Assembly (NCBI GenBank): GCA_973895155.1
Contig: OZ316894.1
Location: 2,558,457-2,622,456 of the forward strand
Length of the DNA: 64,000 bases
From: Marsupella aquatica
Lineage: Eukaryota; Plantae; Marchantiophyta
Direction of reading: 5' to 3'
The notes below the pieces were generated by a model, which was not told the DNA's origin, did no database searches, and saw only the letters and a list, made by a program, of their open reading frames with translations. Positions 1 to 37,764 of the stretch are shown piece by piece. Within the stretch, counting starts at the first letter, position 1. The number at the start of each line of letters is the position of its first letter. A program made the translations under genes and the position numbers.

Positions 1-164
1 CGTGGCTGGTTCGTACATCCCGCAGAAGCATGACTGATGACTCCCTGTCTCCCCATATAATAATAAATAATAATAAATTGTCCTAAAGTCATTCCATGAG
101 ACTATGAGAGACATGCGTATTCCCGATATAGAAGAAGTCATTATTCGAAAGTCATTTGGAGGTA

Positions 165-850: not shown

Positions 851-1026
851 TGTCGTGACATATAGTATCGTAGCCATAGTGTATCGAAAACATACAAGTC
901 ACTGGCAAGGCATATGTGCAAGCTGCTAGCAACCAACATGCATAGAAAAAGTCCAATCACATTCACAAGTGCCAAGAAAAAGCAAATGAAGTGGTATGTA
1001 CATAGTGGAGGTGTAAACCTCTGTAT
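851..1026 (-). repeat. Terminal repeat b2 (176 bp)
   Basis: Near-identical to 1388-1563 (differences seen: tgtcgtg/tgttgtg, actggc/accggc). Confidence 0.95.
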
Positions 1027-1027
1027 G

Positions 1028-1385
1028 ATAAAAGACGTGATAGAAACAAGTGTACTGAAATTGAATCAAAAACCGGCGGGATGCCAAGATCGGCTGGGAG
1101 CATCTAACGAATCACTGTGTGAATCCCGTGTACGGAACCGACGAGCACTGTCTGAGCTCTGTCGACAGCGATTCAAGAAGAACTAAAAACCCACAAAGAA
1201 AGACATGCCCTAAGCAAGCAAAGTCCTGGCGTCACACTAACAAACACATTTGCTTCAAGAACGGCCCAGACTTGCTACAAGAACATGTCGCTAACTCAGG
1301 TAGTACACTAGCCCTAACTACATACCTAGCGGGCAGGCGAGGGACATGCCGATGTGCATAAGAGGCACTATCCCTCGACATGACA
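1028..1385 (-). repeat. Repeat a2 (~358 bp)
   Basis: Near-identical to 10329-10685 and similar to 15981-16339. Confidence 0.95.
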
Positions 1386-1387
1386 TC

Positions 1388-1563
1388 TGTTGTGACATAT
1401 AGTATCGTAGCCATAGTGTATCGAAAACATACAAGTCACCGGCAAGGCATATGTGCAAGCTGCTAGCAACCAACATGCATAGAAAAAGTCCAATCACATT
1501 CACAAGTGCCAAGAAAAAGCAAATGAAGTGGTATGTACATAGTGGAGGTGTAAACCTCTGTAT
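1388..1563 (-). repeat. Repeat b1 (176 bp)
   Basis: Copy of 851-1026; separated from a2 by 2 nt (tc, 1386-1387). Confidence 0.95.
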
Positions 1564-1570
1564 CCCCCCC
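1564..1570 (-). other. Polypurine tract (G7) abutting b1
   Basis: ccccccc on + strand between the pol stop (1603) and repeat b1; an equivalent G-run lies at 62345-62350 in the second family. Confidence 0.75.
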
Positions 1571-1602
1571 AGACCACAGCCAAAAGGAGGGCTGAAGAAA
1601 AT

Positions 1603-4600
1603 TCAGGTAGCACGTGGAGCACAAGAAGGGCAAAACCATAACCCTTCTGGCACCTGGATAAGTTCAGGCCGAAGGCAGAAAAGATGGTACCCTCCATTGC
1701 AATTGTCACACAGCAGCATCTGGTCAGCATCATCAATTCGCAACCACACCTTGCAAGGGTAGTCCACAGGTGGAATCCAAGTAGAAGTCACAATGGTGGG
1801 ATCTAGGTTAGGCAGATGACAAGGGGCGCAATTCTTGGCATTGTCAGCAATTGTGCGCCCATCTGCCCCTTGTAACTCTAGTACTCTAGATGGTCGAATA
1901 GCTTTAACCCTGAGAATAGTACGACTGGTAGAGGTGTCCAGGGTGTCGTTAGCTTGCCGCTGCAAGTACACAAAATCTCCCACATCAAACTTCCTGACCT
2001 TGGGTTGAAAAGTGCCCCCTCGTGTGTGTGCATAACGCAGTGTGTCCCTGTGCTGTGCAATGGCCAAATTCTCCATGGCCATGGGCATAACCCTCCTGAA
2101 TAGGGCAGCCCTCTCAGAGATCACATCAGACCAAGTCACAGCTGAATCCAAGTCCACCACCTGAAGCATGTGAGCAGCAATAGCAGAAGGTGGAACTGGG
2201 TGACGACCAAACAACAAGAAGTAGGGAGAAAAGTTAGACAGTGATGCATGTCTGGACATCCTATACCCCATGGCAATGTAGGGTAAGGCCAGGTCCCAAT
2301 CCTCCTTGTTTTTGGTGAGGCAGATCTTCCGGAGGCCCTTCTTGCATGTCTGAACCATGCGCTCTGCCAAGCCATCTGCCTGTGGGTGATCTCGTGATGT
2401 GCGGCGATGATCAATGAGGGCCTGATCAAGCAGCTCCTGGAACTCTCCTCTAAACTCTGAGCCCTGGTCAGTGAGACATTCTGCACAAGCTCCAAAGCGG
2501 CTGAGAACTTGTTGTAGGAATGCCTGGCTGGTGCTACGGGAGGTCTTATCCGGCAATGCCACAAGTTCTATCCACTTGGAGAAATGCTCTATCATGATCA
2601 TGATGTAGAGATTACCCCGAGATGTGAGGGGTAATTCTCCAGCCAAATCACATGACCAACGATAAAACATGCCCTGAATAGGGAGTGGGTGAAGTGTGGG
2701 TTGCCGAGACGTGAAAGAAGTCCTTACCCTATCACACTGCTCACACCGGGCAATAACATCTCGAACCTGGCCATGCATGCCTCTCCAATGATAATGAGGG
2801 ACCAAGAGGCTGTAAGTCCTCTTAACGCCAAAATGACCAAGCTCAGAATGTACCTTACGAATAAGGCCAACCCTCTCATGAATGGGTGGAACCACCACTT
2901 CCCTGTTTGGCAAGCAGTGCACGAGATGATCTCCCTTCCACAAGTAGCGCTTGGACCTTTGCTGAATTTGGTCTCTCTGGGCAGTAGTAACATGTGTGGG
3001 GTACTCCCCATGCTGCAGAAATCTTAGAGTGTCGTTGTCCTCCCATATGTCCACCACAGGTTGGTCAATAACATAGCATGGCAGCAAAGCAAGATAGGTC
3101 GATGCATGAAATGTAGGCAGGATGGAAACCTGGTCAAAATCTTGCCGTGCATCTGAGGAATCATCAGAGGTAATCAAAGGGCTGCGGGACATAGTGTCAG
3201 CATTCTGATGTGTCAAACCAGGCCTATGAATTACCTCAAAGTCATACTCCTGGAGGATGAGTGCCCAACGAGCAAGCTTGCCAGTAAGCTTGTCGTTAGT
3301 CATCAACCACTTCAAGGGCTGGTGGTCGGTGTAGAGAGTAAACCTGGTCCCATAGAGGTAGGGCCTGTAATGTATGACAGCCCACACAACAGCAAGGCAT
3401 TCACCCTCATAAGAAGAATAATGACTCTCTGCCTGATTGTTGCTCTTGGATGCATAGGCAATGACGTACTCTTTACCTTCCTCATCATGCTGGCCCAGAA
3501 TGGCACCAATCCCAAGGGCACTCCAATCTGTGTGTAGCACAAAGACCTTGCTGAAATCAGGTCTTCTCAGCACCGGGTATTCTGAGAGCTTCTCCTTCAA
3601 AGTGGCAAATGCTGCCTCAGCATCTGTACTCCATGTCCAAGTCACATTCTTTTTCAACAAAGAGTACAATGGATGTGCAATGGTACTAAAATCTTTGATG
3701 TAGATCCGGTAGTAATTGCACAACCCAATAAAGCTCCTAAGAGTGTGAACATCAATCGGAGTGGGCATTTCCAAGATGGATACCACCTTGGCCCAGTGAG
3801 CCATGGTTCTATTTGGAAGAATGCGGTGCCCAAGGTATACTACTGATCTGACAGCAAATTCACACTTCTTGGGGTGTATCTTTAGGTTCACCTTCTTAAG
3901 CCTCATGAATAGCTCCTCAAGGTCAAGTAGATGCTGGTCAAATCCTTTGCTGTGGACCAACACATCATCAATATAGCATTTCAGAAACTCAGCACCTTGA
4001 AGAACCTGGTCCATGACTCTTTGAAAGAATATGGGCGCATTCTTCAAGCCAAATGGCATCACCAACCACTCCCATAGTTGGTTACTACCATGGAAAGCTG
4101 TTTTCTTGTGGTCCTTTGCAAGCAGCAAAATCTGGTTAAAGCCTTGCCTTAGATCCACAAGAGTGAAGATGTCTGAGTCTCCAATGCTGTCAAATAGCTC
4201 CTATGGCTGTGGCATGGGGTACCTGTCCTGGGGTGTGACCAGGTTCAATGGCCTGTAGTCCCCGCACATGCGCTTCTCTGTCCACAATCCACTGGAATCC
4301 TTCTTTGCTGGCATCATTGTAGCTGCTGCAAAATCTGATGTAGAGGGCTGAATAAGACCAGCTTCATAGAGCTCTTGGCATCTCTCATCCACCAGCTGCC
4401 ACTCATGCTTACTCAAGCGGTGTCTCCGCCTGAAGATAGGTGTTTCATCAGCCAACTCAATGGAGAACTGCATAGTCTTGCACTTACCCAAGTCCTTCAT
4501 AGAGAAAGCAAACACATTCTCATGCTTGAGGAGCAAATTCAGCAGCTGGTCCTTCTGTCTTTTACTCAGGTGGTTGCCCATGATGAATGTGTAGTTGGCA

Positions 4601-7098
4601 ACACTAGGAATAGGACCTGATGTACTCGTGCTTGAAGAACCAGAAGTGCCAGCCTCTCCACTGTCCAAGCTGCTAGCATGCTGCTGATAAGGTGATGAGG
4701 CCTCTCCAAGACCTGTTGTATGTGTTGCTCTGGTCTGATCCACACCATGAAACTCAGAAATAATGTCAGCCACATTACAAGGGACCTCCTCCCCCCCAAC
4801 ACTTGGACTGAAGTGGTGAGTGTTGGACAGAGGTAAGTGCACCTGGTCTGGATGCCATGTAGCAGCACCATGGAGTGGTAGGGCTAGAACTCCTAATGCT
4901 GGATGAATGTACATCTGAAAAAGGATGCAAGTGACCAGAAGCCAAGTGAGAGCATTAAGATCCATTACCCTGCCAAGTAAAGCATTCCTAGCCAGCCTGG
5001 TGATTTTGGTGTGACCTGTAGTACCGGGTTGGAAGCCCATAGCCCGTTCTCTCTCCTCAGGACTAGGTTCATCCCATGTACCGGTAGAATGTCGATAAAC
5101 CAGGCCAGGACCATCACCCTGAAAAGCATGTGCACCTAGAAAGGACACAAATGTAGGCCAAGCAGCATGGGGCTGTCCAATGGTATTAGCTAGATACCAA
5201 GGTGCTGGCTCTTGCCGTGTAACCGGTTGGCAAGAACTGTCAGGATCCAAAATTTGGTCCACTGTGAGGTTAGTGTCCCTGGATGTGTGGTGAAGAGCTA
5301 ACTCCAACAAGGAAGGTGGTGCAAGGTTAGTCCAAAAGTTACGAAGACGATGTGCATAAGAATCACAGTGCACTACATCAATGAGAAGGGGTGGTCCCAA
5401 GTAGTGCTGGACCACACTGAAATCCTCTTTGACCTGTGGACGCTGGTCAAACTGAGATGGAGTATTCTCAATGATATAACCAACAGCAGGATAAAGGGAT
5501 TGAGCCCAGGTGAGAATCTAAACCAATGCTGTGAAAAGGCCAGAACGAGAATCATGCAGTCCAGCACCGTGACCAGCAACTGAAAACCCTTGGCATTCCC
5601 AACCAGCTATGATCAAATCAAGGGAGCCAAGAAGGGTTAAGTGCCGGTGCTGGACAAGCTGGATATCTGGAGGAAAGAAAGAAAATGCAGACTTCCATGC
5701 ACTGTGTGGAAACTGCTGAGGAAATCGCTCTGAAAATTCCAGCAGACGGGATTCTACCACTTGCCTTGCACCTGGATCAATATCCACATAGATGTACTGC
5801 TTCACCACCATGCCAGACTGTAGGAGAGCTTCCAGGCCTGTAGAAATGCCACCAAAAAGCTCAAGCAATGTAAGGCCATCCGGAGCAGGAGTCCATGTAA
5901 TTGGTGCGCTCAAGATTGGGGCTATTGGTTGGCCATTGTGCTGCCCAAGATCCTCAAATTTGCGCAATGCAGCCACCAAAGGTCCATGGGCTGCTTGGAG
6001 CCGTTGTACCACCTCTGGTTGATGATCCACATTGCTGGAAAGTGCTGCTATACGTGCAGCAGCATGTGCAGTAGCCACCTCATCATCATCCTCCTCAATC
6101 CAATCCTGCAATGGGTGGTTGACATAGGTAGCTGTGTGCACTGCTTGCAACACACAGTGGTGAGCCATAGGTGTATGGGCACCATGCAAATCAAGTGGAA
6201 TGTAGCCCAAGTGTGAGCCATCCATATGCCAATCAACTCTGTAGTATGCATGCTCATGCCAATTGTCAATGGTAAAACCTGGTGGGAACAAAGCCTCCTG
6301 GCCAATGAGCACATCATACGTAGTGGCATTGGTAACCAAACATCTTACTGGGAAATGCAATTCCTGATCTGTACCTCCATTAAAAGTGAGAGTGAGTAAA
6401 GTAGAACTCTCACCCAGCACATCCTCCACAGTGCCACTAGCAGTCCGAATGTGCCACCTGGATTGTTGTAAATGATCAGTCAGCAGTCCCATCTTCTTGG
6501 CAAATTGAATGCCCAATATCACTGGTTGAGTGCCTGTGTCCAGCATGACCACCTGAGGAGTGTGACCCTCCAACTTGACCGCTGAATTCTTGTTGTCAAC
6601 AATGGCAATGGTGGTGGAAACTAAAGTCCTGTCGCTAGGCACCACTTTTGGCAAATGATGAGGTACCTTGTGAAGGGAGTTAGTGTCCACGGTCTTTCCA
6701 CTCAACAGCATAGTCAGGAAAGATGGAGCAGCATGACCAGAATCCAGTGTAGCTCTGGTCACACAATCTGCAGCAATACTGTCATCTCTACCTCTGGAAA
6801 TTGGTACTGGGATAGCCAAACCAGTGGAAGCATGTAATGGAGAAGAAGAAGATCCAGTATGTACATGAGATTGGACCTCCAAAACCGGTGTCACAGGGGC
6901 TGATGAAGAATGCAGTGAGCCCTCTAGCGCTCTGATGACAGCTCTAGCATCCAGCTGTAAATCATGGCAACTGAAAAGTGGAGTGGTAAGAATCCTTTGT
7001 GCCATACCGGAGGTGAAATGCTCAAGCAGCACCTGGTGGTGGAATGGATGTAGCTGCAGCTCCCTCCCCCCTCGCCAACAAGGTGCGCTCTTCAGCAA
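1603..7098 (-). pseudogene. Gypsy pol: aspartic protease, C5-MTase, RT, RNase H, DDE integrase, C-terminal PHD finger; two in-frame TAG stops
   Basis: Protease LDTG (~6540); RT RMCGDYRPLN, MPFGLKNAP, YIDD; RNase H LHTDWS, YTDH; integrase HSELGH..C..C, CDLAG, TDQGSEF, AERMV; PHD CDNC..H..C..WFCPSC. ORFs 5518-7098, 4201-5415 and 1603-4158 share one frame, broken by TAG at 5518-5520 and 4201-4203. Confidence 0.95.
4925..5880 (-). other. DNMT3-like DNA (cytosine-5) methyltransferase domain inside pol
   Basis: Motif I LELFGGISTGL; IV IAGWECQGFS..DSRSGLF; VI YIIENT (read past the TAG at 5518); VIII AHRLRNFWTNL; IX EERERAMGF; X RLARNALLGR. Confidence 0.9.
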
Positions 7099-8955
7099 GT
7101 GTGAGTGGCTGAAAAGATTGGGGCATGACAGCCCGAGCTCCCCTGGCTCTAGTCATAGGACCAGCAGCAAGACCATCAGCCTGTACAATGCAGCGTGTGG
7201 GAGCAATACGGGAGGCAGCACTGGCCTGCTGGTAAGCAAAATAGGAAGGACAGAATGAATCTGAAAATTCTGCTGTAAGGCCAGGCTGTGTAGCAGAGGA
7301 CAGCACACACTCACCCATATGAGCATCAAATGGCAAGCCATAGAAAGAGCGGGGTAGAGGTGCTGAACTGTCAGTGGTGCCTGGGCCAGGGATGAGTTGC
7401 ACGTGACCAGCCGGTTGAGAAGGACCAGCAGAGGCAGTGGACTTGCCTTTGATGTTGGCAAGTTGGGCACGTAAGGACTCAACCTCATGAGTCAGAGACT
7501 GGAGTTGAGTTGCCTGTGCGTTGTGAGCCTCCTTCTGAGCTGGTTGCTTCTGTTGCTGCTTGGGCAATTTGTTAGCACTGGATGCTTTGCCACTGGAAGG
7601 AGGAGCAACTGATGCAGTAGGAGCCCTCCTAGCTGGTGGGGGAGTGGAAGCAGGAGTAGGATGAGGGGTCTACTGTCGTAGCTGCTTCCTCTCTGGGAAT
7701 TTGGCAAAACAAACTGCCCCCAAGTGGCCCACTTTTCCGCAAAAATCACAAGACAGGTCCTCAGCAACAATATCACATTCATTAGCCTTGTGATTGGGGT
7801 TACCACAATAGTTGCAAGATGGCAGCATGAAAGCAGCATGTGCTGGCTTGGTCTTGGAACCATACTGTGGCACACGGGAAGGGGTGGTCAGTGTAGGGGC
7901 AGCAGCCTGGTACCTGGATCGCGGTGGACGCGCAATACTGGCCTCATAATGTGCATGGGCCAACTCAAGTTTCTCAGCAATGTCATAGATATTGAGCAGG
8001 GTGTAGCTGTCTCCAAACTCTGAGAATACTTGCTGCAACACTTGCAAATGGAGAGCTGGTGTGCCCTCCAATGCGCAAAGATAGCGATGAGCAGCTTCCA
8101 GGTCAATGATGCTCTGGGTGTCTTCCTTCAGCTTGAGAAGCCGGCGATACAACATCTTCAATGTTTCATCGCGCTGCCTCACAAAGGTGGCCAACTGCAT
8201 GATTTTTTCAGCACTCTTGATTGGGAATTCCAATTCAAGAACCTGGAAAAGCTCAGCCACTGGATCAGCAAATGCAGGGGAATCAATGGTGGGAGAAATG
8301 CCTGATGTAGCTTGTGCCAAGATAGTGGGAGTAACTGGTGCAGTGGTGGGAACTAGAGTAGGAGGAGAAGTGGCAGGAGTAGTAGCATGGGCTGCAATGG
8401 CATTCTGTAATGCCAATTGTGAGGCAACCGCAATTGCAGTGGCATAGGCAGGGTAGGCAATTGTGTGACAGTAAGCAGCCATTGAGAATGCTACTCATAC
8501 ACATCCAAAGCCTCATGGTGCACATACCTGGCTAGCTGCTTAAATGCAAAAGCATTTGTGAAGTTGCTGCCATACTTCAACTCCAATTCGTAAACGATAG
8601 TGTAGAAAGTAGATTTGAACTCATGCAAAGAAACAGTGCCTGGCTGCCCACTGAAGCGCTCAATGCGGCCAGATGAGTGACTGGCATCCATGCTGTATGT
8701 TGGTGAAGCTGGAACAATCACTGATGCAGAAGGAGTAAAGGGCAGAGAAGCGATAGCAAGCTTCAAGGTAGTGGTGAAGCGACCGCCAAATGTAGCAGAA
8801 GGATTGCGTGGTGTGGGTGCTGTTGCTGTCTGCTGACGTCGTCGAAATTGCCGAGACTCCAATGAAACTGGCACCAATGGTCGTGGATCACTCCGTAAAT
8901 GGTACCTGGGTGTCGGTGGCAATGTGCTGCTACCTCCTGGCTCATCGGCTAACAT
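7022..8955 (-). pseudogene. Gag with two CCHC zinc knuckles (disrupted)
   Basis: CNYCGNPNHKANEC and CDFCGKVGHLGAVC; TAG stops at 8491-8493 and 7670-7672; frameshift near 8455-8490; overlaps pol in a different frame around 7022-7098. Confidence 0.85.
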
Positions 8956-10315
8956 GCTGCATGCTCACCTAGGTGCCAACGGGAAAGAAACTGACAAGAA
9001 AAAGAAATGGCAGCCCCAAGGCTAGGAAATAAACGGTGCGAGGCAGAAATGTGTCGAATGTGTAAACACACAGAAAAACCATCGGCAAAGAAAAGACCCT
9101 TAAAAACTCCAATTGTACTGGTGTTGTGCTTGCTGGATTGACTGTCTGATGAATATGCCGGGCCCTTAGCTTTATGCAGATGACACGTGGCGGCAGCAAA
9201 GAAATCCAGAAAAATGGACCCTTAAAAACGTAAATCTGGGCCCCTTTAAGTGTATACATCGGCCTTCTCAAATGTATAAACATGGGGCCCGGTTAAGTGT
9301 ATACATCGGGCCCCGATGTGGACCCGGGAACTGGCAGCAGGTCGATCGTCGCACGGCGAAAAAGTGAGAAAGGCCGAAAAAGGGGAAAATAGCCGAGGCA
9401 AGCTCGCAGGTGGCCGGAAAGAGGAGAAAAGACGTCGCGAGGCAGGGCAAAAGAAACGGGGCCCTCTTAATGGCATGAGCCCTCCATAGGGCTTCGTGCC
9501 CCACCTTATGTGCTCCCGAAAAGGGGCTACGAACTCCCCCCCCCCCTCCTCTCCTTCAATGCAATTTGGGCCTCGTGCCCTGGCAAAAGACTCTCGTGAG
9601 AGGAGTCAAGTGTACTCCTCCCCCTCCCTGCTTTAATTACTCCATAGGGCCTCGTGCCCTGGTGACAGTATGCCCGAAGGCAAGGGAGTCGAGTGTACTC
9701 CCCTCCCCTGCTTCAATGTTGCTTAGGGCCTTGTGCCCTCTCCTGGCACCCTCGCTCCCCCTCCTTCTTTAATGCAGCATAGGGCTTCGCGCCCTCCTTG
9801 CGCTTCCCCCTCCCCTCCGTGGCTGGTGCTCGGCTCCCCCCTCCCTCCTTAATTAAATGCTGGTAGTGGGAGACATGATGCCCTGTACGCACAGCCTGCG
9901 AGATAAAGGCAGGAAAACAAACGGAGGGAGGAACTTCGAGGCTTGGCAAGGCAAAAGAAAAGGGGCGCGCGGTGGCCGAGGCAGTCGTGGCTGGTAAACG
10001 AAAAAGGGCCCCAAAGAAGTCGTTAAAAACAGGAGCGCGGGTGCGCCCTGTGCAATCGGCGTCGATGCAGCAGTCAACGTAGATGCGGCAATCGATAACA
10101 GCAAGTCGCGAAATAGGTTGCGGTCGGAAAAGAAAAGCCTGGGCAAAAAATGCAAAGGAAAACGAGGGAGGGGGGCTTGTTTGACTTAAGTGTATACACT
10201 TAAAGTCATAACTTCCACCCCATCGCTCAGCGTTTTTCCATAGAAATTGCACCGGCTTCACCAGAAATTGTCAAAATCGCCACGAGCAATCTTCTTCTCC
10301 TCACCGCTAACTCGG

Positions 10316-10330
10316 CAGTTCTTCTTGAAT
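10316..10330 (-). other. Putative self-priming primer-binding site
   Basis: cagttcttcttgaat (10316-10330) is the exact reverse complement of attcaagaagaactg (10472-10486) inside a1; no TGG-type tRNA PBS follows a1. Confidence 0.7.
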
Positions 10331-10685
10331 AAAAGGCGTGATAGAAACAAGTGTACTGAAATCGAATAAAAAACCGGCGGGATGCCAAGATCGGCTGGGA
10401 GCATGTAACGAATCACTGTGTGAATCCCGTGTACGGAACCGACGAGCACTGTCTGAGCTCTATCGACAGCGATTCAAGAAGAACTGAAAACCCACAAAGA
10501 AAGACATGCCCTAAGCAAGCAAAGTCCTGGCGTCACACTAACAAGCACATTTGCTTCAAGAACGGCCAGACTTGCTACAAGAACATGTCGCTAACTCAGG
10601 TAGTACACTAGCCCTAACTACATACCTAGCGGGCAGGCGAGGGACATGCCGATGTGCATAAGAGGCACTGTCCCTCGGCATGACA
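10329..10685 (-). repeat. 5' terminal repeat a1 (357 bp)
   Basis: Matches 1028-1385 and is not followed by a b copy. Confidence 0.95.
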
Positions 10686-10689
10686 TAAT

Positions 10690-13600
10690 CCTAAAACACA
10701 CGACGAGCAAAACTGAGGGCCAAACTCAAACTGAAGAACAGGGAGAGAAGCAGTAAGAACCAACTTCTGACACACTGAAACCCCAGCGAAAATCCCAATA
10801 TTTACAAAAGGATTCGCCAACTGCTAACCACTAAATGACGAAAAAAAACACAAACATGACTAAAACTGCCGGAACTTCAAGGTGGATCAAAAAGCCACAA
10901 TGGAGTGAATTCTATGATGAAAAGACCATCCTCCATACGGAACAAGCCACCATCATGACCAAAGTCCCGGATCATCTTTCCACACAAGTCTTGCCTTCCA
11001 CTGTCATTGAGTCGTAGTCGATCCTTCCCTTGCTTCCAAGCAATTTTCATATTCAATCTGAGCTCTCTCCAAATCTTAATCTTAATCCCCACCAGACTGA
11101 TCCGCACCTTCTCCTTTTCCCATGTGCATCGAGCCTTCCATAAATGCCAAATCGTAATTCCTCGGATTAAATGCCAAAGTTTAATTGGAGTATCACGAAT
11201 AGAACAATCCAAAGGAGCACCCATGATCACATGAACTGCAGAAAATGAAAAAATTTGTGAGACCCTCGATCCTGCTCTCTGCGTAATCCTATGTACCCAA
11301 CTCCAAATGTATCGTGATTCACAGCATCCCCATAAACAATGAAGAAAGTCTTCGTGCCAGTTACCCTCACATTGTCCGCACCACCATGCAGCATCGTTAC
11401 GAGAAAAAGGGATTAACACTCCAGCCTCATCCTTCCAAATCGAATGCCTGCCAATGTAATGTTTAGTCGCGAAGATTCTATGAGCGACTTGCCATAAGAA
11501 GAAATTAGTCTTCATCTCTCTGAATGGTTTCCAGATATTCCTCCAAATATCTTTATCCAACGGAACAGCATGCAACTCCTCTCTCCATTTCTGCACCCCT
11601 ACCATGTGCACTGCATCTCTGTTTTGTAATAATTTCCGAATGCTAGCAGTAGTAGCATGGAAGAAACTCAAACCATCTTTCCATAGGAATTGATCTGAGA
11701 TTCCAACAATCTCATCATCATGCCCTTTCAATCCAATGGCTTTCTTCTGTGAGAACCAATTCTTGACTTTCCCAGTAATCATCATATGTAAACTCACATT
11801 GGTTGTTGGAAGAGGACTCATAGCAATCCTTAGAAGAATTCCATCTTTGACAGAAAAGGTGCCTTTAATGCTTCCGACCACCTCTCCTGGATTCCAGAAG
11901 TATTTCAAATCTTGATTCAACATCATCACCTCCCATACCAGATTACCTTCCAGAATAGGTATCTGAGAAACCATAACAGTGACTTCTGCATTGTGTATTC
12001 CGAACTGTGGCATACTCAACCTAGAATTATTTAGAAGGGCCAGAAACGCTCGATGTCCACTGTTCTATACTCCCTTGCTGAGCATTTCGTTGCAGGAAAA
12101 AGGTGACCCATCCGAAGAACAAACATTTTGCCATTTCTGCATACCACATTGTCCCAACAGCTTTTGTTGATTTGACTTGCATCCCACCTTGCTAATCGCC
12201 ACATGAAGACTAGATGGAGACCACAATGGTAACTGTAAAGCCATTTGCAAATTAGCCGGTATCGAGAACTGCAACAGAGTTTTAACCTTATTCCATGATC
12301 TGCAAATTCCTTTCCACAAATTAGAACCATTTGACGGCAGTGTTCGACATGTGTTGAACACCCATGAGTAGTCATCAGATCCCCATTTTTTAACTGATAG
12401 ATCCCGAATACGGGATTGTAAGAGAGTCTGAAGAGGATGGTCTCCAGAAGAAACGGCAAACATCATAAATCTTGCTGCCAGTGCTACTACTTGATGTTCA
12501 ATCGCAATTAAGCCAACACCACCTAGCTTCTTTCTTAGATCAAGAGTGAGTGTGAAAATTAATCCGGTGCTGTGCTGAACTTTCTTGCCCTGCCCATAGA
12601 AAATCAATCAGCCCCATCTTAATAGCATGTAACTCCCGATCTGATCCACACCACAACGTAAGTGTAAACCACAGAGAACCCATCAGAATATGGTTGACTA
12701 CCAAAACCCGTGCGCGCCATAAAAGAATGTGGTCTCAACCTAGCCTGTATCAATTTCTTTTCCATGATCCCCTTGATCGATTGAAGTATATTTCCACTAT
12801 CAATCCCTTCCACACCAAAGAGAAAACCTAGTAGTTTTGAATAATCCTCTGAACTTTCCCAACGCCAATTTAAGTCGGATAGATCTCTTGGTAAAGGGTT
12901 CTTGCTTAGTAGAATAGCCGTCGCCTTATCCCAATTGCATCTCAAACCAGATGCCTTGGCAAAAATCTCAAAGAACTCCTTACAGTTATCAATATTCTCT
13001 TGTACTCCCTTGATAATAATTGTCATATTATCGGCATATATAGAACTGTTGCGCAAGGTGTAAACCTTCTTTCTCAAATTTAATGCCCTTCAACCTTCCC
13101 GATGATAACTTCTCCGTCAACAAGCTATCTAGCCCCTGAATCGCAATGATAAAAAATAACGGTCAAATAGGGCATCCCTGCCTTACCGATCTTGTAATTC
13201 TGAAAGTGGAAGAAACCTTTCCATTTATCAAAATCACAGATGAAGCATTCTTCGTAATTGCATTGAAGAATTTGATGAAAATATCTCCAAATCCTAACCT
13301 CTCCAGCATCTTTTCAATAAAGATCCATTCCACGCCGTCGAATGCCTTTATTACATCCAGCTTCAAGCATACAAAAGGATCCGGCTCTCTCATAGCCTGA
13401 GCCATCATTTCATTTGTAAGCAGTAACGTATGATGAATAGACCTTCCCGACAAATATGCATATTGTTGTGACGAAATGATCTTGATCAGCACTCTGATTA
13501 ATCGTAATTGAAAAGCTTTGGTACCAATCTTATAACTCATAGTCAATAGCGATATCGGTCGCTTATTTTCAATTTGACATTCATCCCCTTTCTTAGCCAG

Positions 13601-15010
13601 AAGAATGATAATTCCTTTGAGGAACTTAGGATCAAAAGAACCTTTATCAATACCGTATTGCAATGCTTGCAACAGAATAGGGCCCAATTCATTCCAAAAC
13701 GCTATGAAGAATTCCGCTGGCACTCCATCATGCCCAGGAGCCTTAAGTTTCCCTAAAGCCTTTGTAGCCGCCTGAATTTCTTCTAACGACAAATCCTGTT
13801 CCAATAAAATTTTATCTTCCCTCGAGATACGAATCTTTACCTTCTCCAGAATCCGTTCCAACTCCTCTTCTGATGGCTTGTATTTTGATGAAAGGAGGTT
13901 AGAATAGAATGTAGTGGCTATCTGCGCCATGTCCGACCATTCGCCCTGCACCTTATCCTCATGATCATATAGCCCTTTCAATTCTAAAGCAATCGCTTTA
14001 GGTTTGAATGATGTGAATTGTAATTGAGAACACTTATCCCCGTGTTGAATCCACTTCATCCTCATCGCTTCCTTAATCCATTTTAGCTTGTTTTCATCCA
14101 ACCTCTATAAGTTTCCTTGGCATTCCAACAAAGCTTCCTGCCTCTCAGTATTATGTGGCTCTTCTTCTAGATTGAACTGCGCTAGCGATAACTTATCTTG
14201 AAGCTCTTTGCATTTTAAAGCTTGCAGCATTGCCTGTCTTTTGCCCCATGCCCTATCCATGTTGGTCGCTCTTTTAAGGCAGCCGTCCAACAATTTATCA
14301 GGGGGAACCTTTTTACGAATCATCTTTGCTATCTCCATTCGTAGCAACTCTTCCATCTTTCGTCTGAATGAATCATCACAAAAATGAGCAGAATTCATTT
14401 TGAACCGTGACGGCAGAAATTGGTTAACTCCATTGGTACAATGAATACTCAGGGGATGATGGTCTGACATGTATTGTGCAAAGATAATCCTCGACTCAAT
14501 GGAACAATTGAACTGCTGCGACCTCTCTGGCGCATAACATCTATCCAAACGTCGATAGATTCTATCTGTGACAAGCATATGTCCCCCTATTCTCATATTA
14601 CACCATGAGAATCTAAGTTGACCCGGAAGTCTTTTGAATGTATCACACGATTTCATCTTCCTCAAGAGATGTTCCCACACCCTTTTTTCACGCCCAGCTA
14701 CTACATGAGGACGACCACCAATCTGATCCTCCAGATTTTCCACCATATTAAAATCTCCCAGCATGATCCATGCAATATCATTTCGTATCTCCTGGAACAC
14801 TTCTGCCCAAAGACCATCTCTCTCTCTTTCTCCATCTATCCCTTTTTGGGGAGGTGGAAGGCTTGCATCCTCCCTATTTCTCTAACTGGATGTCAAAGAG
14901 TTGGCGTGATGAGGTTTTGTCTTACTTTGTTTCTTTTGAATTAGAAGCTAGGACAGACACGATCTGCTAATGTCAGAGAAGAAGGCATAATAGTCTTCAC
15001 CTAGTTTTAT
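10690..15010 (-). mobile_element. Decayed L1/Tx1-like LINE ORF2 (APE endonuclease, RT, zf-RVT), 5'-truncated
   Basis: WIMLGDFN, RLDRCY, SDHHP (endonuclease); KAPGHDG, RPISLL, KLDVIKAFD, VRQGCP, YADN (RT); FFLWQVAH..CGQC..HCLWGC; split by stops and frameshifts. Confidence 0.92.
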
Positions 15011-15019
15011 CAGATTAAG

Positions 15020-16339
15020 TCTCCCCCCTCCTCTCCTTTAATGCAATTTAGGCCTAGTGCCCTGGCAAAAGACTCCCGTGAGAGGAGTCGAGTGTACTCC
15101 CCTCCCCTACTTCAATGTTGCTTAGGGCCTTGTGCCCTCTCTTGGCACTCGCTCCCCCTCCCCCTGATTTAATGCTTCATAGGTCTCCGTGCTTGACTGC
15201 CTGGCAAAAGGACTCCTGAGGGAAGGAGTCGTATGTACTCCCCCCCTCCATTTAATGTAGCATAGGGCCTCGTGCCCACTCCTTGCGCTGCTGCCTTGGC
15301 TCTATCTCCCCCCTATGAATGCTGGCAACGGAAGGTCGAGGCCTGGAACGAGGTCTGGAGGAGGCAAAAGAAAACCGGGACCCCCCTTTAAGACAAGGCA
15401 CGATGTCCTATGTGCGGGAGGACTGGAAGAGAGAAGCTCGAAAGGGTGGGCGTGCGGCCCTATGCGCGCCCAGGGGCAATTTAATGAATGTCGTATTTGT
15501 ATACACAGGCAGGACTGAGCTCACAATAATAATTGCAAGGGAAGGCGAGAAGAAACAACGGCCGGGAAGAAAAATTGGGTGGCAGCAGGTCACGATCGGA
15601 AAAAGGCAAAGCAAACGGACCCGTGGCTCTGTGCGCTCGGGAGGTAGTCGCGAGGTGATCGCACGGTAGTCGAGGGAAACTCGCCGGCAGCCATGGCCGG
15701 GAATGCAAAAACAACCCCAAAAGCAGTCGAGGCAGCAAGCGGCCGTGACAATAAGAAGGAGCAAAGGGGTCACGGATGCAACCAGAAAATGAAATCCAGA
15801 CCTCCTCGAGAGCATTGATATGTGTATACACTTAAGTATACACATAACAACATAAACCCACAACTTCCAACTCGTCGCTCCGATGTTCGTTGAAGAAATT
15901 GCAATGATTTCACCAGAAATTATCAAAACCGCCACAAGCAATCTTCTTCCCCTCACTGCTATCTCAAGAGTTCTTCTTGAATAAAAGGCGTAAGAGAAAT
16001 AAGTGTACTGAAATCAAATCAAAAACTGGCAAGATGCCAAGATCGGCCGGGAGCATCTAACGAATCACTGTGTGAATCCCGTGTACGGAACCGACAAGCA
16101 TTGTTTGAGCTCTGTCAATAGCGATTCAAGAAGAACTGAAAAATGGCAAAGAAAAACATGCCCTAAGTAGGACCGGGTCTAGGCATCACACTAACAAACA
16201 CCTTTGCTTCAAGAACGGCCCAGACTCGCTACAAGAACATGACACTAACTCAAGTAGTACACTAGCCCTAACTACATACCTGGCAGGCATGCAAGGGACA
16301 TGCCGATGTGCACAAGAGGCATTGTCCCTCGGCATGACA
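15020..16339 (-). mobile_element. Second, truncated copy of the split-LTR Gypsy family (a1 plus 5' UTR only)
   Basis: 15981-16339 is repeat a ending ..gcatgaca; parts of 15020-15980 resemble 9535-10328; the self-priming inverted repeat is retained (15969-15982 / 16124-16137). Confidence 0.88.
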
Positions 16340-18670: not shown

Positions 18671-21600
18671 TCACGGAGGGAAAGTGTCAATTTTGTGCCA
18701 ACCTCCTAGAGAGATTGAAATTAATGCATTGTAATAAAATGATAGTATCAAAGTTTGTGAATATACTCCTGGACAGATTTGAGTACGTATCTTAGGAGGA
18801 ATTTTCAATCCTCGATCTATAATGTTCTTTTCTTTCATACCCGATTTAAATCCATACATTGCAGACGAAGCATATTGCCATGCAATGTAGTCATTATCAA
18901 AATTTGGGTTGCGTTCCCAAATTTTGCTCGCCATGAAACACGTACGGTATCAGACTCCTTCGTCTGCATCAAGTTTTCCATGCTTTGGCCTCCACCATTG
19001 AAGCGGAAACATTGGAGCAACTCTATCCACAGAATTTTCATGAGGAAGTGAAGTTGATGTTGAAGTAACATCAGTGATTTTGTGCTTTGGGTCTATTTCT
19101 CCCACAGCTCGAACCAACCAACACAAACCTTTCCCGTACTTCTGTTCCCAATCATCTTCAGGACGAAGGAACACAAAATGTCCCTCCCAAATATCCTCAA
19201 GAGGATTCCAATGACACTTCTCTCTTTCAGAACGAGACCCCACAAAGGGTGTTGTACGATCCTCCATCTCCTTGTTATACTCATTTTGAAGTCCTGTCAT
19301 TTCTTGATTCTCCTCCTCCTCCACTGGTTCGAAAGGAACATCAAATTCTTCAGAGATTCCTCCATTAGACTTGTAGCCTGTGCCATGATTTGTCTTAGGC
19401 CAAAACCCAAATTGTAGCAACAAAATATTAATGTCCTCCCCATCCAATTTAAGGGATCCTGATAGCTGCTCCTTCACATTCTCCCAATATTTGATTAATG
19501 GTGATCGCTCACGATACATGGCAGATGTTGGATCAGTACAACTACTCTTGAGATGCTCAATAAATTTTCCAATAAATTTAAGCACATCATCTGATTCCTT
19601 ATGGAGGTCAACAATCCGTTTGGAAAAAGGTTGTCCATCAGGAATGCTCAGATTTTGAGTGATAGAATCTCTTTCCCAAATACACCTTCCATCCGTGGGA
19701 AGCCATGGTTGCTTCATATGTGTTTTGTATTGCCATATTGGTAAGTTCCTAGCTTTTCATGGAGAAAAGAAATGCAATTGGTTGTGATTGACCTGAGATA
19801 TCCTTTACATGCGATCACAAGTAGTCTTTGTATGCTGCAACCTCTTGAATCAACCTTGGAACAGGGTGGATGCTCTCGCATTCCCAGACTTCCGCCATGA
19901 GTGCCAACAAAGTTGAAACTTCTCGATTTTGAACTTGCTTTGCTACCTTTGAAAAAAGTGCGTCCACGTCCTCGTGTGTATGTCCAACCATGAGAAAGGA
20001 CATTTGCACCGTTTCAAAAACCCCTCTAGCAACAAGTTGGCTACAAAAGGCCATCACAGTTTGATTTTTATTATCCTTTCCGGAGTTGTCCATTTGTAGA
20101 GTAAGGTGACGCGGCAAGGGTTTGAAAGCGGACCTTGATTCTTTCCCTCTTGAAGCATCTCCTTGAGTCTGGGTTGATCCTAGATCAATCCCATCCTCCT
20201 CAATACCTTGATATCTAGTAACATCAAGCTTCTTTGGTTGTAAATATCCTTGTAGAAAAGCATCAAAATCAAGTAGCTTTTGAAATATCATCCGGGTGGT
20301 TTCCCAATAAAGCCCTACAACAATATCTCCAGTCTTGTCTCCATCATACTCTTCAAGATCACGGAGGCATTTGGCTAGCGAAGAAACAGTAAAATCTGAG
20401 TCTCCGGGCCATAGACCCGTAACACTAAAATGCGCATATACTCCTGGATCCCTACTGTGAGTCAACACTCCTGTGAGAGCTACAGGAAGTGGAATTCCCT
20501 GACCCGAAAGTGATTTTGGAAGGCTAGCCAATCTTGGTATCCATGTTTTGGCCTGATCCATCTTATCATGAATGATACAAAGATAATTATCAGGGTCTTT
20601 TTTGGCAAAAACCTGTGAGCATAATATTGGTACCTCTTGGACATCTGCTCCCTCAAGTGCCTTGATCTACTTTCTTCAATTTCTCCCCTTTCTTTCTTTC
20701 TTCTCTCCTTCATCAAACTCTCTTTGAATGTAATGCAAAGATTACACTTTGCAAAAGGTCCCTCCTTGTGAAAAGTGTAGTTATCAAACGATTTGTTCCA
20801 TGTAGTGTACATGGTATTGATCAAAACTGGTTCAACGCCATCTACTTGCATCTTTGATTTCACCTCCTCATAGATGTTCTTTTTGTTGAAGCATGAAGGA
20901 AGTTTGTACTCAATTCAATCTGTTCCACACATACCCGTATATGAAAGATGGGGCATCGGCTCTCCATATTCAATCAAGATGGCCTCAAGGTAAGCACGTC
21001 CAATCAATGTGCTTGATCTTGTTTTTGACACTCCAGTGTTTCCGTGGAAACCAATTTGACAACCATCCTCATACTGGCTTTTGTAACTGTAAAATTGGGA
21101 TCTACTAAACCCATGAATGGTATAAAAAGCCTCTCGACAAACTATCTGTCCATTGAGTACAAAATATCCTTTCTTCACCACCGAGTCCTCTCTGCAATGG
21201 AAAAGGTTAAGGATGTAACTTGTTTTGTTGTTGCAAGACATCCCATGGTACTCGCTTCTTCTTTCTTCCATCTCATCCCGTGAAATATTAAGGGTACACT
21301 TCAGTTTGCAACATTGTTCTCGTTTGATGGCATCAATGGACTCTTCAGTTATTTTTGTCACCACCCGAGATTGAAGATGTCTTCTCCGTCTTTCTTCAGG
21401 ACCAACCTTCATTCTCTTGATACAATTATATGGTCGTTTTGCTGCAGGAATGCTGAGAGTCTCCGGAGGGTCAACATCATATTTACCCTCTATTGCCCAT
21501 TTGTCAGAATACTTGTCCACAATATCTCCAAGAAAGCACCCATTAGCCTCAAGCTTCAAAGAATGAATGGCCCCACCTAATGAGGCCAGGAACACCCTTT

Positions 21601-24167: not shown

Positions 24168-26768
24168 CTGTAGAGGCAAGTGACAAATGACTCGAATGAG
24201 CTCCAACTAGGAGCTTTATGCACTTGCCTCACAACAATCGATCAAGATTAGATGATAAGGGAAATCAGCTCGCAATCAACCTCTTGGACCATTCTAACTA
24301 AATGCGCCATTTTTCTGACAAGCTAGCGATCACCATTATTCAAACTCATGCATTTTATTGGAATGCTTACCACCACCGGGGCCGAAGGCATCGGAACATC
24401 ACTGGAATTTTTAAATCTCCAACTAGCTAGCTAAATATTGGGCCACCAAGCCAACTGTCACCTGCTTATCAAACGATTTACACGACAAATACATATTTAC
24501 TTCTACTAAAATTGTTTGTTATCGTATGACGGGAACGTGGAGGGACGCTATTAGGATTCTAGTGCATGTAGAATGAGTATGTTTATTTCCGCTCCCAGAA
24601 ATGTAGTTTTTGATCAAGTCTACCGACTAGCCGCTCTGCTTTTGATCAAGTCCCATGGACTACGCCACACACACACTCCTATTGGTCGCTGGTGGAGTGC
24701 TGTCACCACCCCCCTACTCACATGGTCGACCAATCCGTGCAAGTATTCTTTAGACACTTCTTGGGGAAAGAACACAATCGTGAACCAGAAAAGATAACGC
24801 CACACCAAAACTTGAGGAATCAAACCAAATCCATAGATATCTTTTGGCAAAACGTCGTAACATATTGCAAGGACAACCCGGCCTCTTGCCGTCTGCTGTC
24901 ACGCGATTGACATGGGTCTTAACACCAAAAATGTCACTATGGGTGCCAAAACCATCTCTTTGTACCTGAGGATCACGAAGGGATGTTGTAAAGGCCGGTG
25001 AACACCAATTTATGCCCTTAACACCAGACTATCATAACAAGACTCCGTCACACATCACCCAAGCTCAATCCCTAAGAACCAAGGTTGGGAATCAGATCTG
25101 CGCTCATGATAGTTCTGGTGAGAAGGGGCCTTCATATCGGGCCCGTACACACAGGGCCTAGCGCTATGGTGTGCATAGGTCTATACGTATGCTTACTGTC
25201 ATAAGGATGTTTCTATTCCGCCGCCGGAATATACCCATAAACCAGTGACTCCTGACTGATTCCCGACTTAGGGACTTCTACGCCATTGCCCCACCACTCT
25301 GCCATTCCACTCTCAGCAATCAGAGCTATGACAGTCCTCACCTAGCCCGCTTCAATGCACCCTGTACACCTCTCAGTGGTGCTGCTAGTCCCATCATACA
25401 CTCAGATTGCCTCACACACACACACATCCATGAGAGAAATGAGGCCTAAGAGGAAAACTCAATTAGATTCAACGATGTGCACAATAGTTCACTGAGAACA
25501 CTTGATCCGAACAATAGGCCCGAAGGCTCTCTACTCCAGATTGCGACGTGCTTGCCATGCAAGCTCAATCCTGAACCTGAGCCCGGCTCACTCCAGATTG
25601 TGACGGCAGATTGGACTCGAACCAATCCTGTACTTGCCTTGCAAACTCAATCCTGAACTTAACCTCCTTCACTGCACTTCATTCTTGGGGGCACATACAG
25701 ATCTCACACCTCCAATTCAGAACGTCAAGTTATGCATGCACAGTTGACTCGACTTCAAAGCTGGTACCAGGCCTAACAACGATCTATCCCAGACTGCAAT
25801 GAGGCCCGGCCTCACGCTTGCCCTGCAAGCTCCGCTCTGGCCATAGATCCCTTAGTGCTCTCCACCAGACAAAGGCCGGGACTTCCCATGGATCACGTAG
25901 CCTTGCCAGACTGAACTGTAAATGCTCCTCTTGCTGCCCCTCAATCAGTGTCTCAGCCTCCCTAATGTGCTCACCACAAATCAAATTGACATCCTCCCCA
26001 CAGTTTACAATCGCCAATACATCACCTATCACCAAGGCTCTGTATCGGGGGAAAAGAACCCAGTTGTGCTGCCCACTAGAAAGAGCCACAATCCAACTCG
26101 CAAACCTAGCAACTCGTTGCTATGAAGCTTGGCTGATTACTCCCTAAGTAATAGCACAACCAAGCTCTCCCCAACACGCAGTGTCCAAGTCCAGCCTTGC
26201 TTGCACAGAGCTCCTCCCTGCTGCTCAATCTAATTGAGATCACACAACTGAAGTCCCCCTGCCTCTACCAGGGGCTGCTCTATATACTCTCATACTGAGC
26301 CCAAATGGGTGGATACTACGCTGCTGGAGCCCCATCCCAGCCCTAACAGAGTCGCCACTATCTCTAACTACTGAACCCTAACTCGCAACTTTATTTCTAT
26401 CTCGAATTGGCTATGTACTTCGGATTCGACCCTCCTCCATGGTTTTTGCGAGCTTGCGCCTCCTCTCCCGATTTCTCTATTCAACCATTTGCTGCGTGGA
26501 TAGCAGCGTTGGAAGCGGCTTGAGCTCCTCTTTCCAACGAGGTCAATTATAGCCGATTTGGTCAAATACATAGAGAGTTATGCCCCCGCAACCGAGAGGG
26601 GGTACTCACTGCTGCGCTAACCCGAGTTTGGCTAACCTAGCTATCCTATCTAACCCGAGTAGAGCTAACCCGTGGTCTCGGGTTAGGCCGCTACCCGCTA
26701 TCCGCTATCCGCTAACCTAGCCTAAGCTGAGCCCGAATCCAAGCTTACCTATGCTAACCTGAGGCCGC

Positions 26769-26915
26769 GCTGACCTGAGCTAAGCTGAAGCCGTGCTGAC
26801 CTGAGCTAAGCTGAAGCCGTTCTTACCTGAGCTAAGCTGAAGCCGTGCTTACCTAAGCTAAGCTGAAGCCGTGCTGACCTGAGCTAAGCTGAAGCCGTGC
26901 TCACATAAGCTAAGC
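26769..26915 (+). repeat. 26-bp tandem repeat (~5.5 copies)
   Basis: gctgacctgagctaagctgaagccgt units start at 26769, 26795, 26821, 26847, 26873 and 26899 (partial). Confidence 0.9.
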
Positions 26916-28075
26916 CGTGGTCGAGCTTGGGTTAACCCGAAACTGAAGCCGAATCCGCTAATTCCGGTCACAAGTTAACCCGTCACACTAATCAGGCCGT
27001 ATCTTTCTTAATACACCTCCGTTTCTCGAGTGTTTTATATCGATTTTATTCGCCTTGACCAGATCTTTCCAATGCTCTTTACAGATCCGGATTTGGTGAC
27101 ATATTGAAAGAGATATGGTCATCGACCACCCGCGATATAGCTTTTATTTCCCTACTCTTAACGTCATGATTGCCCTTATTCTTGCCATCTTGCTAATTGT
27201 TATGCAATATCAATAACTACTCCTTGCATACAGCGACCTACTTAATCAGATTACAAAATAAGGACCATGTCATTGGCGTCACAACTGCCCAACTACTGCC
27301 TCACTAGGGCAAGTGCTACACCTCTACCTCACTACTCTGGCTTGATTCCCTCTTCTGGCTATGAGCTAACTTCCCTAAGCAAACACTAGACTGAGTTCCC
27401 CCCCTCATTACTCCGGGGCTCTCCCCCTAGATACCAAGAAAACACACCAAAGCACCCCTCACGGGGCCACAACGATGGCGGCTTACCCTAGCGGCGCCGC
27501 TAAACCCTTCACTAAGAAGCCCCCAAACTAAAAGCATGCGGCACACACATGCTTCTAAAACCCTAAACCCTAAACTAACAATGGGGCCGACGGTGCCTTC
27601 GACGGCACCCAACATTACTCCGTGAACCGTGAAATTGCAAGGAACCCCGCAATGGCCGAAACTAGGCGCCCATCCACTTGCACTTCTGAGTTCACCCCTG
27701 GATAGCTCTCCTCCTCCTGAACATGACGCACTCAACCGCTCTTGAAACGGACATCGGACGACCAAGTTATGGTCGTTTCAGTATCCCGTAAACCCAACTT
27801 CGTCGGGCCCTAACCTGCTCATCCTGGCTCTGTTTGAGGAGCGCTGCCTCTTGTTGGAATCAGCTCCGCGAGCCCTTTCCAACAAGCCCATGAGTGACCC
27901 CTCAAAAAAAAGTTGGAAAGTTAAGGGGCCGTACAACCACGTCCTCCTCTTCACTCACGGTGCCCTAGCTTGAGCCCCGTGAGTGGGCCTCCTCATCACT
28001 CCACTGGAGTGAGTGCCACCTCACTCCTCTTCTTCTTTACCGGGGTACTCCTTGTGCTAGTGCTCCCCTGCTTCC

Positions 28076-36740: not shown

Positions 36741-36988
36741 ATGTACACTTGTACATCCTCTAAAATCCATTTTGAACTCATTCGTTAACAGAGGTAGATG
36801 AAGAGATATCAAGTGTGAAGAAGCAGTCACGGCCAAAACTATGCAATTCAGAAGGTATTTGGTGTGGTCATTTATTGTTTTGTCTGTTTTTTTGATGAGT
36901 TTGTCGATGGCGTCGGCTCATGACCCTCTTTGGTTCTTTATTGGTTATTCGGTTTGATTTTGATATCAAGTGATTTGACATCTTACAG

Positions 36989-37764
36989 AACTTGATTGGG
37001 ATCGCATTTCCAAAATATCTCCCTCTCCGATCAAGCGAAAGCTACTAATATTGGACCTGAACAAAGTATTGTGTGACACCACAATTCTTTGGCAGCAAGA
37101 CCATCCACCATTTGATGTCAAGGCTGGTGACCATGTGGATAGGCGAAAGGGTGGTACCTATGTTTATACAGAACGCCCCGGACTTCATGCATTTTTGGAG
37201 TTTGTTTTTGAAAAATATGATGTAGGCATTTGGACTTCTGCGAGCAAATCTCGTGCATCTCGGATGATGAAGATTTTGTTCACTACTCAAGAGAGGCGTC
37301 AATTGAGATTTATTTTTTGTCAAGAAGATACAACTGACGCATGCATCTTAAGACCAGATGGGAGATGTAATATTTTTATGAAGGATTTTCAGAAGGTGTG
37401 GAGAAAGTTTGGAAGTTTGTATGACGGTTCAAACACCATTCTCATTAATGACTCCCGATGGAAGGGATTTCTTAATCCCAGTTGGACTCAGTTAATCCCT
37501 AGTGCATTCACGCGAGAAGAAAAGTTTGACAATTTTCTCATGGTAGTTTTGGCACCATATCTTCACAAGTTGACACTGGCTTTCGACGTTCGACTTTTTT
37601 TGTTTGAGAATCTTCCAAAGTGGTCGTATTTTGAGACGGTCTGCGTTGTCCTTATTTTGCTCGGGAGAGGAGAGGCAGGCGCGGGGAGGGAGGCAAGGCA
37701 AGTCGTGACTAAACGGCTGCCAAACGGTCATGGGATAACGTTGGCTCCCTGGCCGGATGTGTGA
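36989..37764 (+). CDS. HAD-superfamily NIF/FCP1-type phosphatase domain
   Basis: KRKLLILDLNKVL, ERPGLHAFLEFVFEKYDVGIWTSA, KDFQKVW, NTILINDS; starts after the acceptor ttacag at 36988. Confidence 0.85.

Follow-up and report, generated by a model that had tools for sequence, protein, structure and literature searches.

DIRS-like repeats of the order A-coding-B-A-B, combined with Gypsy protein domains, are given in the legend to Fig. 4c of de Mendoza et al. (2018; PMC5890265) for KnitGypsy-Dnmt3 of Klebsormidium nitens. The passages of that paper and its supplement that were searched give no termini, target-site duplication (TSD), register of the polypurine tract (PPT) and primer-binding site (PBS), palindrome, short form or mechanism. 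Here we describe an element of the same layout at positions 851-10685 of a 64,000-nucleotide stretch of the liverwort Marsupella aquatica (GenBank assembly GCA_973895155.1, contig OZ316894.1, positions 2,558,457 to 2,622,456 of the forward strand; the whole stretch is called the window). The author of a first-pass annotation of the window knew of no description of such an arrangement for long terminal repeat (LTR) elements with a DDE integrase; the KnitGypsy-Dnmt3 legend is one. KnitGypsy was named in no other paper within the literature searched, and no explanation of the layout was found in that literature, outside which lay Repbase, REXdb, GyDB, most subscription papers and bioRxiv supplements; a fuller description may exist.

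Retroviral LTR circles have been debated as integration precursors since the 1980s, and the usual view is that they are dead ends. In Tf1, the priming sites and the LTR ends lie in the same register. The integrase of foamy virus was reported to cleave a palindromic LTR-LTR junction in vitro to ends indistinguishable from 3′-processed ones (PMC1180852), and 2-LTR circles of HIV-1 (human immunodeficiency virus 1) have been put forward as a store of precursors for integration (PMC4372172); in the parts of these two papers available to us, the palindrome is created by joining the ends made by reverse transcriptase (RT) and belongs to a side route. Gypsy-7a_cRei, a Chlamydomonas element that bears a PHD and is active in laboratory strains, has a left LTR that stops 8 bp short of the end of its right LTR, according to the portion of the preprint consulted (bioRxiv 10.1101/2022.06.16.496473), and is possibly a small-offset version of the design described below. 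Papers retrieved on split direct repeats, Gypsy and integrase together dealt, by title and abstract, with tyrosine-recombinase elements, Penelope-like elements and general transposable-element topics. The passages available of PMC6317226 do not mention PHD, methyltransferase or Klebsormidium, and neither they nor those of PMC12344493 and bioRxiv 10.64898/2026.05.21.726589 describe the mechanism.

Results

A Gypsy element with split, permuted LTRs

Coordinates refer to the plus strand of the window, and the element itself lies on the minus strand. Its repeats fall into two parts, a and b, arranged as follows.

847-850, no strand: left copy of the TSD, TAAT
851-1026, minus: b2, the terminal b copy, ending ...GACA, the 3′ integrase end; 174/176 positions identical to b1, that is, two differences
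1026-1028, minus: a2/b2 joint, where the PBS-defined end of a meets the PPT-defined start of b
1028-1385, minus: a2, the second a copy, starting TGTCATG
1378-1395, no strand: internal palindrome resembling an integrase attachment (att) site, ...GACA-NN-TGTC..., with a 2-nucleotide spacer at 1386-1387
1388-1563, minus: b1, the first b copy, starting ATACA immediately after the PPT
1564-1570, minus: PPT (G7), abutting b1
10329-10685, minus: a1, the terminal a copy, whose TGTCATG start is the 5′ integrase end
10686-10689, no strand: right copy of the TSD, TAAT

On the element strand the order is thus TSD, a1, internal region, G7 PPT, b1, GA, a2, one base, b2, TSD. The order a1-[gag-pol]-PPT-b1-(2 nt)-a2-b2 and the 4-bp TAAT duplication around the whole unit had been proposed in the first-pass annotation, and every coordinate was confirmed base by base. 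The two copies of a were 97.2% alike (359 columns, E 3e-172), and chance repeats were rejected as the source of the layout. The single extra base of the a2/b2 joint, at 1027, reads C on the element strand; a1 has T at this place. The element starts with TGTCATG and ends with CACGACA. Both ends recur internally, facing one another over the two nucleotides at 1386-1387; the palindrome of this copy has decayed to ACAACA-GA-TGTCAT, in which the spacer, read on the element strand, is GA, flanked by ...ACA and TGT....

The element shares with canonical Ty3/Gypsy elements (Metaviridae) the order protease (PR), RT, RNase H (RH) and integrase (INT) with a Gypsy-type RT, the DDE integrase, the PPT, the TG...CA integrated ends and a short TSD within the 4-6 bp of that group. 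In contrast to them, it has no complete LTR pair: the PPT abuts the ATACA of b and not TG, the PBS abuts the end of a and not CA, the integrated ends lie off the ends defined by PPT and PBS, and the att sequences point towards one another within the LTR. Split direct repeats, a trait of the DIRS order, are present, and like PAT and Ngaro the element has the A-coding-B-A-B layout and a presumed intermediate with joined ends; unlike them, it has a DDE integrase and a 4-bp TSD, and no tyrosine recombinase was found. The element is Gypsy by protein and not canonical by structure.

Priming sites place the integrase ends inside the LTR

The PBS-like site that had been noted at a1 proved to be a perfect 15-nucleotide complement of a stretch inside a1 itself.

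10316-10330, minus: self-complementary PBS, 15 nucleotides; a Tf1-type core of 11 nucleotides would be 10317-10327
10472-10486, minus: partner of the PBS inside a1, perfectly complementary over 15 nucleotides

None of 2000 mononucleotide shuffles reached a complementarity of 15 (maximum 13). A self-complementary PBS occurred in three families with different sequences. Two compensatory changes separate the stem of the window family from that of the L007-type family, and L015, the third family, at 52% protein identity, forms 16/16 pairs in a 16-nucleotide stem of another sequence (0/100 shuffles above 10). Among 14 related a1 copies, a stem of 13-15 pairs (G-U allowed) was found in eight; in the remaining six the best stretch was 10-12 pairs, in four of them at another site. 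By this pairing, the 5′ end of the transcript would lie near 10485. A TATA box stood about 30 nucleotides upstream of the equivalent start site in all four related a1 copies inspected; none was evident at that site in the window copy. The same G run followed by ATACA was seen in most related loci.

Since the PPT precedes b, and the TATA box, self-primer and PBS lie in or after a, the LTR defined by reverse transcription is b-NN-a; neither of its ends is TG or CA, and the integrase ends lie inside it, as the first reading of the window had held. The complementarity suggests self-priming of the Tf1 type. As in the parts seen of the Tf1/sushi papers (PMC7175516, PMC6317226), the PBS can pair with a segment of the 5′ repeat. 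The longest a/b joint among related copies (that of L064) ends exactly where an 11-nucleotide self-primer predicts, the modal joint being one base shorter. Unlike Tf1/sushi, the window element has a PHD and a DNMT in place of a chromodomain.

Long and short copies, and the same layout in three families

Related insertions were taken from the best 80 of at least 521 related metagenome-contig stretches and counted as distinct after loci with the same right flank had been merged. Because the a and b of the window gave no blastn match in the related loci except one 22-nucleotide end match, family-specific references were taken from the related loci. The integrase C-terminus was reached in 70/80 loci, and b followed it in 58, two of these ending inside b. 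Among 41 distinct insertions ending in b, 23 were long (b-NN-a-b) and 18 short (b, then flank). TSDs of 4 bp were found with both forms. A b-NN-a without a full b2 was seen in L011, L046 and L049; only the last ~29 bases of b2 remain in L046, the TSD of which is exact. The TSD of the eight related long copies with both ends was exact in five, had one mismatch in two and was missing in one; that of five short copies was exact in two, had one mismatch in one and was missing in one, the start of the fifth being unresolved.

Ordinary a-b...a-b pairs, the finding that had been named as one that would refute the first reading, did not appear: b stood upstream in none of 20 distinct 5′ ends (18 related and two in the window), and no solo a-b unit was recognised among the 80 loci. 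The spacer measured two nucleotides in all 27 junctions (GC 9, AC 8, AT 4, GT 3, other 3), and its variants look mostly like C-to-T decay of CAGCTG. In two distant families, L053 and L015 (49-52% protein identity), GACA-NN-TGTC is kept after their own PPT and b, and the same layout extends across three families at 49-80% protein identity. The layout is real, family-wide and outside the canonical LTR scheme. When a tree was built from the 3′-terminal 1.5 kb of pol, long and short copies were interspersed and not separated, and their terminal branches had similar medians (short 0.056, long 0.054; p 0.62, 18 vs 22 copies, a comparison of low power).

The window family itself was represented in contigs of four sequencing runs from two studies, possibly including the source sample. 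The b-NN-a junction was present in 4/4 runs, the a/b joint 1563-to-10328 in 4/4 and the joint 1563-to-10329 in 3/4, with rarer deleted joints; where letters were listed, GC was the deepest spacer. These joints are the best-supported ones only, and contig depth yields neither copy ratios nor the phasing of long and mirror forms. A scan of viral contigs returned no relative.

Three further features were seen in related loci. In L003, L005, L037 and L048, for example, the b end has 2-3 tandem 15-bp units, each ending GTCACGACA; related elements end at the last unit, the window family has one clear unit, and the units may be integrase-binding repeats. L015 runs from PPT-b-GT-a directly into PBS and leader (8545-9317) with no exact terminal overlap, an order that a tandem, a 1-LTR circle or a collapse in assembly would give. 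L058 has two b-NN-a-b blocks in a segmentally duplicated integrase region (2740-5520).

The a/b joint varies and b2 resembles the b1 of its own element

By-eye counts showed that the length of the joint departed from the mode in 10/24 long copies, as against 0/15 a1 ends (Fisher p 0.006). The departures were -2, -1 and +1, and in one case most of b was lost while the TSD remained; 5/23 joints fit a 2-nucleotide AT microhomology. The sister copies L003 and L010 have the same rarer joint, and this joint recurs in separate parts of the tree.

Identities between elements were equal for b1-b1 (0.890), b2-b2 (0.887) and b1-b2 (0.887), and b2 is therefore not a separate lineage. Within elements, the mean b1-b2 identity was 0.920, compared with 0.887 between elements. 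In 21 elements, b1 and b2 of the same element had 27 rare column states in common (shuffled mean 6.2, maximum 19), a count that includes gap columns and is inflated by them. These results suggest that the a/b joints vary as joined complementary DNA (cDNA) ends do and that b2 is recopied from b1.

Coding content and surroundings

The pol domains were read through both in-frame stops, entered as X, and scanned against Pfam.

1603-7152, minus: pol frame with PR, Dnmt3-like methyltransferase, RT, RNase H, H2C2 zinc finger, DDE integrase and PHD
about 4918-5880, minus: Dnmt3-like cytosine methyltransferase within pol
4201-4203 and 5518-5520, minus: in-frame TAG stops in pol
2362-2649, minus: integrase triad D518, D578, E613 of the last open reading frame (ORF), intact
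7022-8964, minus: gag region, split over several frames
15023-16339, minus: 5′ end (a and leader, ~85-88% alike) of a second, older family member

The window copy is dead, because pol has two in-frame TAG stops and gag is broken over several frames. The CCHC zinc knuckle of gag is weak (E 0.0012, below the Pfam cut-off). At window 7025-7030, many family contigs have ~30 additional bases that are absent from this copy. Among solved structures, the best matches were DNMT3A for the methylase (E 1.8e-07) and Ty3 Gag-Pol for RT to integrase (E 4.5e-79). A Dnmt3-like methyltransferase was present in 15/16 related loci tested. The second D and the E of the integrase are separated by 34 residues, not 35, in 87/88 pattern-matching homologues (120 examined with ORF 1606-4200), a spacing that might relate to junction cleavage. 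Pfam found no chromodomain on the integrase, which has a PHD instead. A scan of the element's ORFs of at least 100 amino acids on both strands, covering all but a few short alternative frames, gave no tyrosine-recombinase match, and a tyrosine-recombinase element was rejected.

In having a Dnmt3-like methyltransferase inside a Gypsy Pol as well as A-coding-B-A-B repeats, the window element is like KnitGypsy-Dnmt3, as far as the parts seen of that paper tell. It differs in its nearest named proteins, which came from Calypogeia fissa (79-82%). Further named relatives were those of Riccia, Klebsormidium, Closterium and Tetraselmis. These relatives by themselves make a bryophyte host probable. Three K. 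nitens proteins, not labelled KnitGypsy-Dnmt3, were 49-55% identical over RT-RNase H in pairwise comparison only.

The older family copy begins with TGTCATG as well; its flank is another one, no b stands upstream, and a long interspersed nuclear element (LINE) truncates it. At window 47-75 and 10690-15026, the split element probably sits nested in the 3′ untranslated region of this broken LINE, which has RT frames at 10877-14881 on the minus strand and a TTA-type tail near 55-75. The LINE itself breaks up the leader of the older copy and has GTCTCCCC on either side, which may be its TSD. Elsewhere, 62996-64000 holds the integrase (rve, H2C2) of another Gypsy element that runs off the window (67% DNA likeness to the integrase core of the element described here). 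ORFs at 19815-20666, 36979-37764 and 50416-51264 match Pfam DUF7869, NIF phosphatase and YGGT, and tandem arrays lie at 52071-52710 (57 bp) and 26709-26928 (26 bp).

Discussion

The long form requires both an internal cut and the joining of RT-made ends. We consider it probable that integrase cuts the CA-NN-TG palindrome inside the LTR and that the RT-made ends are joined, most plausibly as a 2-LTR circle. Transcription would start inside a1 and end in a2, and the first 11-12 bases of the RNA would anneal to the PBS and serve as the minus-strand primer, as they do in Tf1. With plus-strand synthesis primed at the PPT, standard reverse transcription from these signals would yield a linear b-NN-a-internal-b-NN-a without TG...CA ends. 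Joining of its ends would produce the variable a/b joint observed. Integrase would then nick both strands after CA at the upstream palindrome, and nicks across the 2-nucleotide spacer would leave two ends with 2-nucleotide 5′ overhangs, the geometry of ordinary 3′-processed ends. Strand transfer of these ends would give a-internal-b-NN-a-b with a 4-bp TSD, the product found in the window. A circle joined before it is cut is the simplest order of these steps. Short a-internal-b copies could derive from 1-LTR circles or from linear DNA in which both palindromes were cut, and they should be dead on arrival because they lack the second copy of R; their interspersion with long copies at similar age fits birth as short copies by either route.

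Several points weigh against this mechanism. The circle, the transcript and the cleavage are each inferred. Two papers of 1989 on murine leukaemia virus reportedly, by their titles, describe junctions or internal attachment sites as poor substrates. The short form, which the model did not predict, is nearly as common as the long one, and the mirror form a-b-NN-a-internal-b was seen in none of the copies with both ends, against nine long and five short (0 mirror vs 9 long, binomial p 0.004). Fourteen of the 24 joints are of modal length, a tighter distribution than the scars of classical non-homologous end joining. The own b1 was the nearest neighbour of b2 in only 7/21 elements, these being old copies, and gene conversion could give part of the sharing between b1 and b2. 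Neither L007 (long) nor L016 (short) has a TSD, and the related loci are metagenome contigs, in which repeats can be misassembled. The origin from a 2-LTR circle proposed in the first-pass annotation is accordingly supported by the variable joint, the apparent copying of b2 from b1 and the lack of ordinary LTR pairs, but not by the count of mirror copies.

For the short form alone, recombination between b1 and b2 after insertion, or collapse in assembly, would make it uninformative on integration. These repeats are 176 bp long, in direct orientation and ~360 bp apart, and recombination between them would keep the TSD. However, short copies are neither older than long ones, as recombination predicts, nor younger, as collapse predicts (within the low power of that comparison), and no solo a-b unit was recognised among the 80 loci; we regard this account as rather unlikely.

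As to the order of cutting and joining, integrase might instead assemble on the upstream palindrome of the linear DNA, cut it there and insert both halves; repair in the chromosome would then close the break between the end of a and the start of b. The same product and the same variable joint would result with no need of a free circle, and a double palindrome cut of linear DNA would account for the 18 short copies without 1-LTR circles and agree with their interspersion and equal branch lengths. On the other hand, each insertion would leave the host with a break to repair, and an intasome would have to keep hold of a fragment that has been cut off. Nor does this order by itself explain why the mirror form is missing. 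We think it unlikely, if worth keeping in view. Less favoured still is a joint made by RT switching template from the end of a onto the start of b, giving a nicked circle or short concatemer that is cut at the palindromes. The near-precise joints and the AT microhomologies fit such a jump, and the plus strand, finishing last, could bias extension rightward and so explain the absent mirror form; yet an intramolecular jump again yields a circle with two palindromes, and L046 lost most of b; this origin appears improbable. Finally, an inherited or accidental rearrangement, in which b2 and the joint were copied from a parent transcript or arose from an ordinary LTR element through misassembly or a local duplication, could draw on the joint common to sisters L003 and L010, on the collapse of repeats in metagenome contigs and on the b-NN-a of L015 running straight into the PBS, but it is already largely refuted and very improbable, given the layout in three families and its report in Klebsormidium, the rare states common to b1 and b2 of one element with b2 no separate lineage, and the recurrence of the rarer joint in different regions of the tree. 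The 0/20 count and the family-wide layout also speak against an ordinary LTR pair with a local duplication, which was rejected.

To return to cleavage of a 2-LTR circle at the internal palindrome, such a circle has two equivalent palindromes, and random cutting predicts mirror copies as frequent as long ones. As the mirror form is absent, a simple circle needs a bias towards the upstream site, or else cutting precedes joining. The upstream palindrome may simply become double-stranded first; the timing of second-strand synthesis and marking by the element's own methylase are guesses at what makes the palindromes unequal. The proposed reaction resembles that of foamy-virus and HIV-1 integrases, as described in the parts consulted of PMC1180852 and PMC4372172, in that a palindromic CA..TG junction would be cut on both strands to processed ends. 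It differs in that the palindrome of the window family is encoded inside the LTR and is apparently the sole att site.

The layout was already known from the KnitGypsy-Dnmt3 legend, which, in the material available, comes without a mechanism. New here are the palindrome, the register in which the priming sites lie, the varying joint, the existence of a short form and the absence of a mirror form, together with a PBS complementary to a stretch inside a and the apparent recopying of b2 from b1. A broader picture, which we hold tentatively and as possible rather than probable, is of an old Gypsy clade, its protein relatives ranging from green algae to bryophytes, that has uncoupled its integration ends from its RT ends: it would prime itself, depend on 1- and 2-LTR circles, which lead nowhere in other LTR elements, as obligatory precursors and use a DDE integrase that linearises and inserts the circle at an encoded internal palindrome, with a mark of strand history or methylation perhaps telling the palindromes apart.

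The clade apparently has no att site at its RT-made ends and would therefore need the internal junction in every cycle. If this is true, the family offers a natural system, with a defined palindrome of 16-18 bp and predicted products, in which the question of circles as precursors can be tested. Because LTR finders expect two full LTRs and the short form has no repeats, copies of these elements should be missed or misparsed, and annotations of bryophyte and algal genomes probably contain too few of them.

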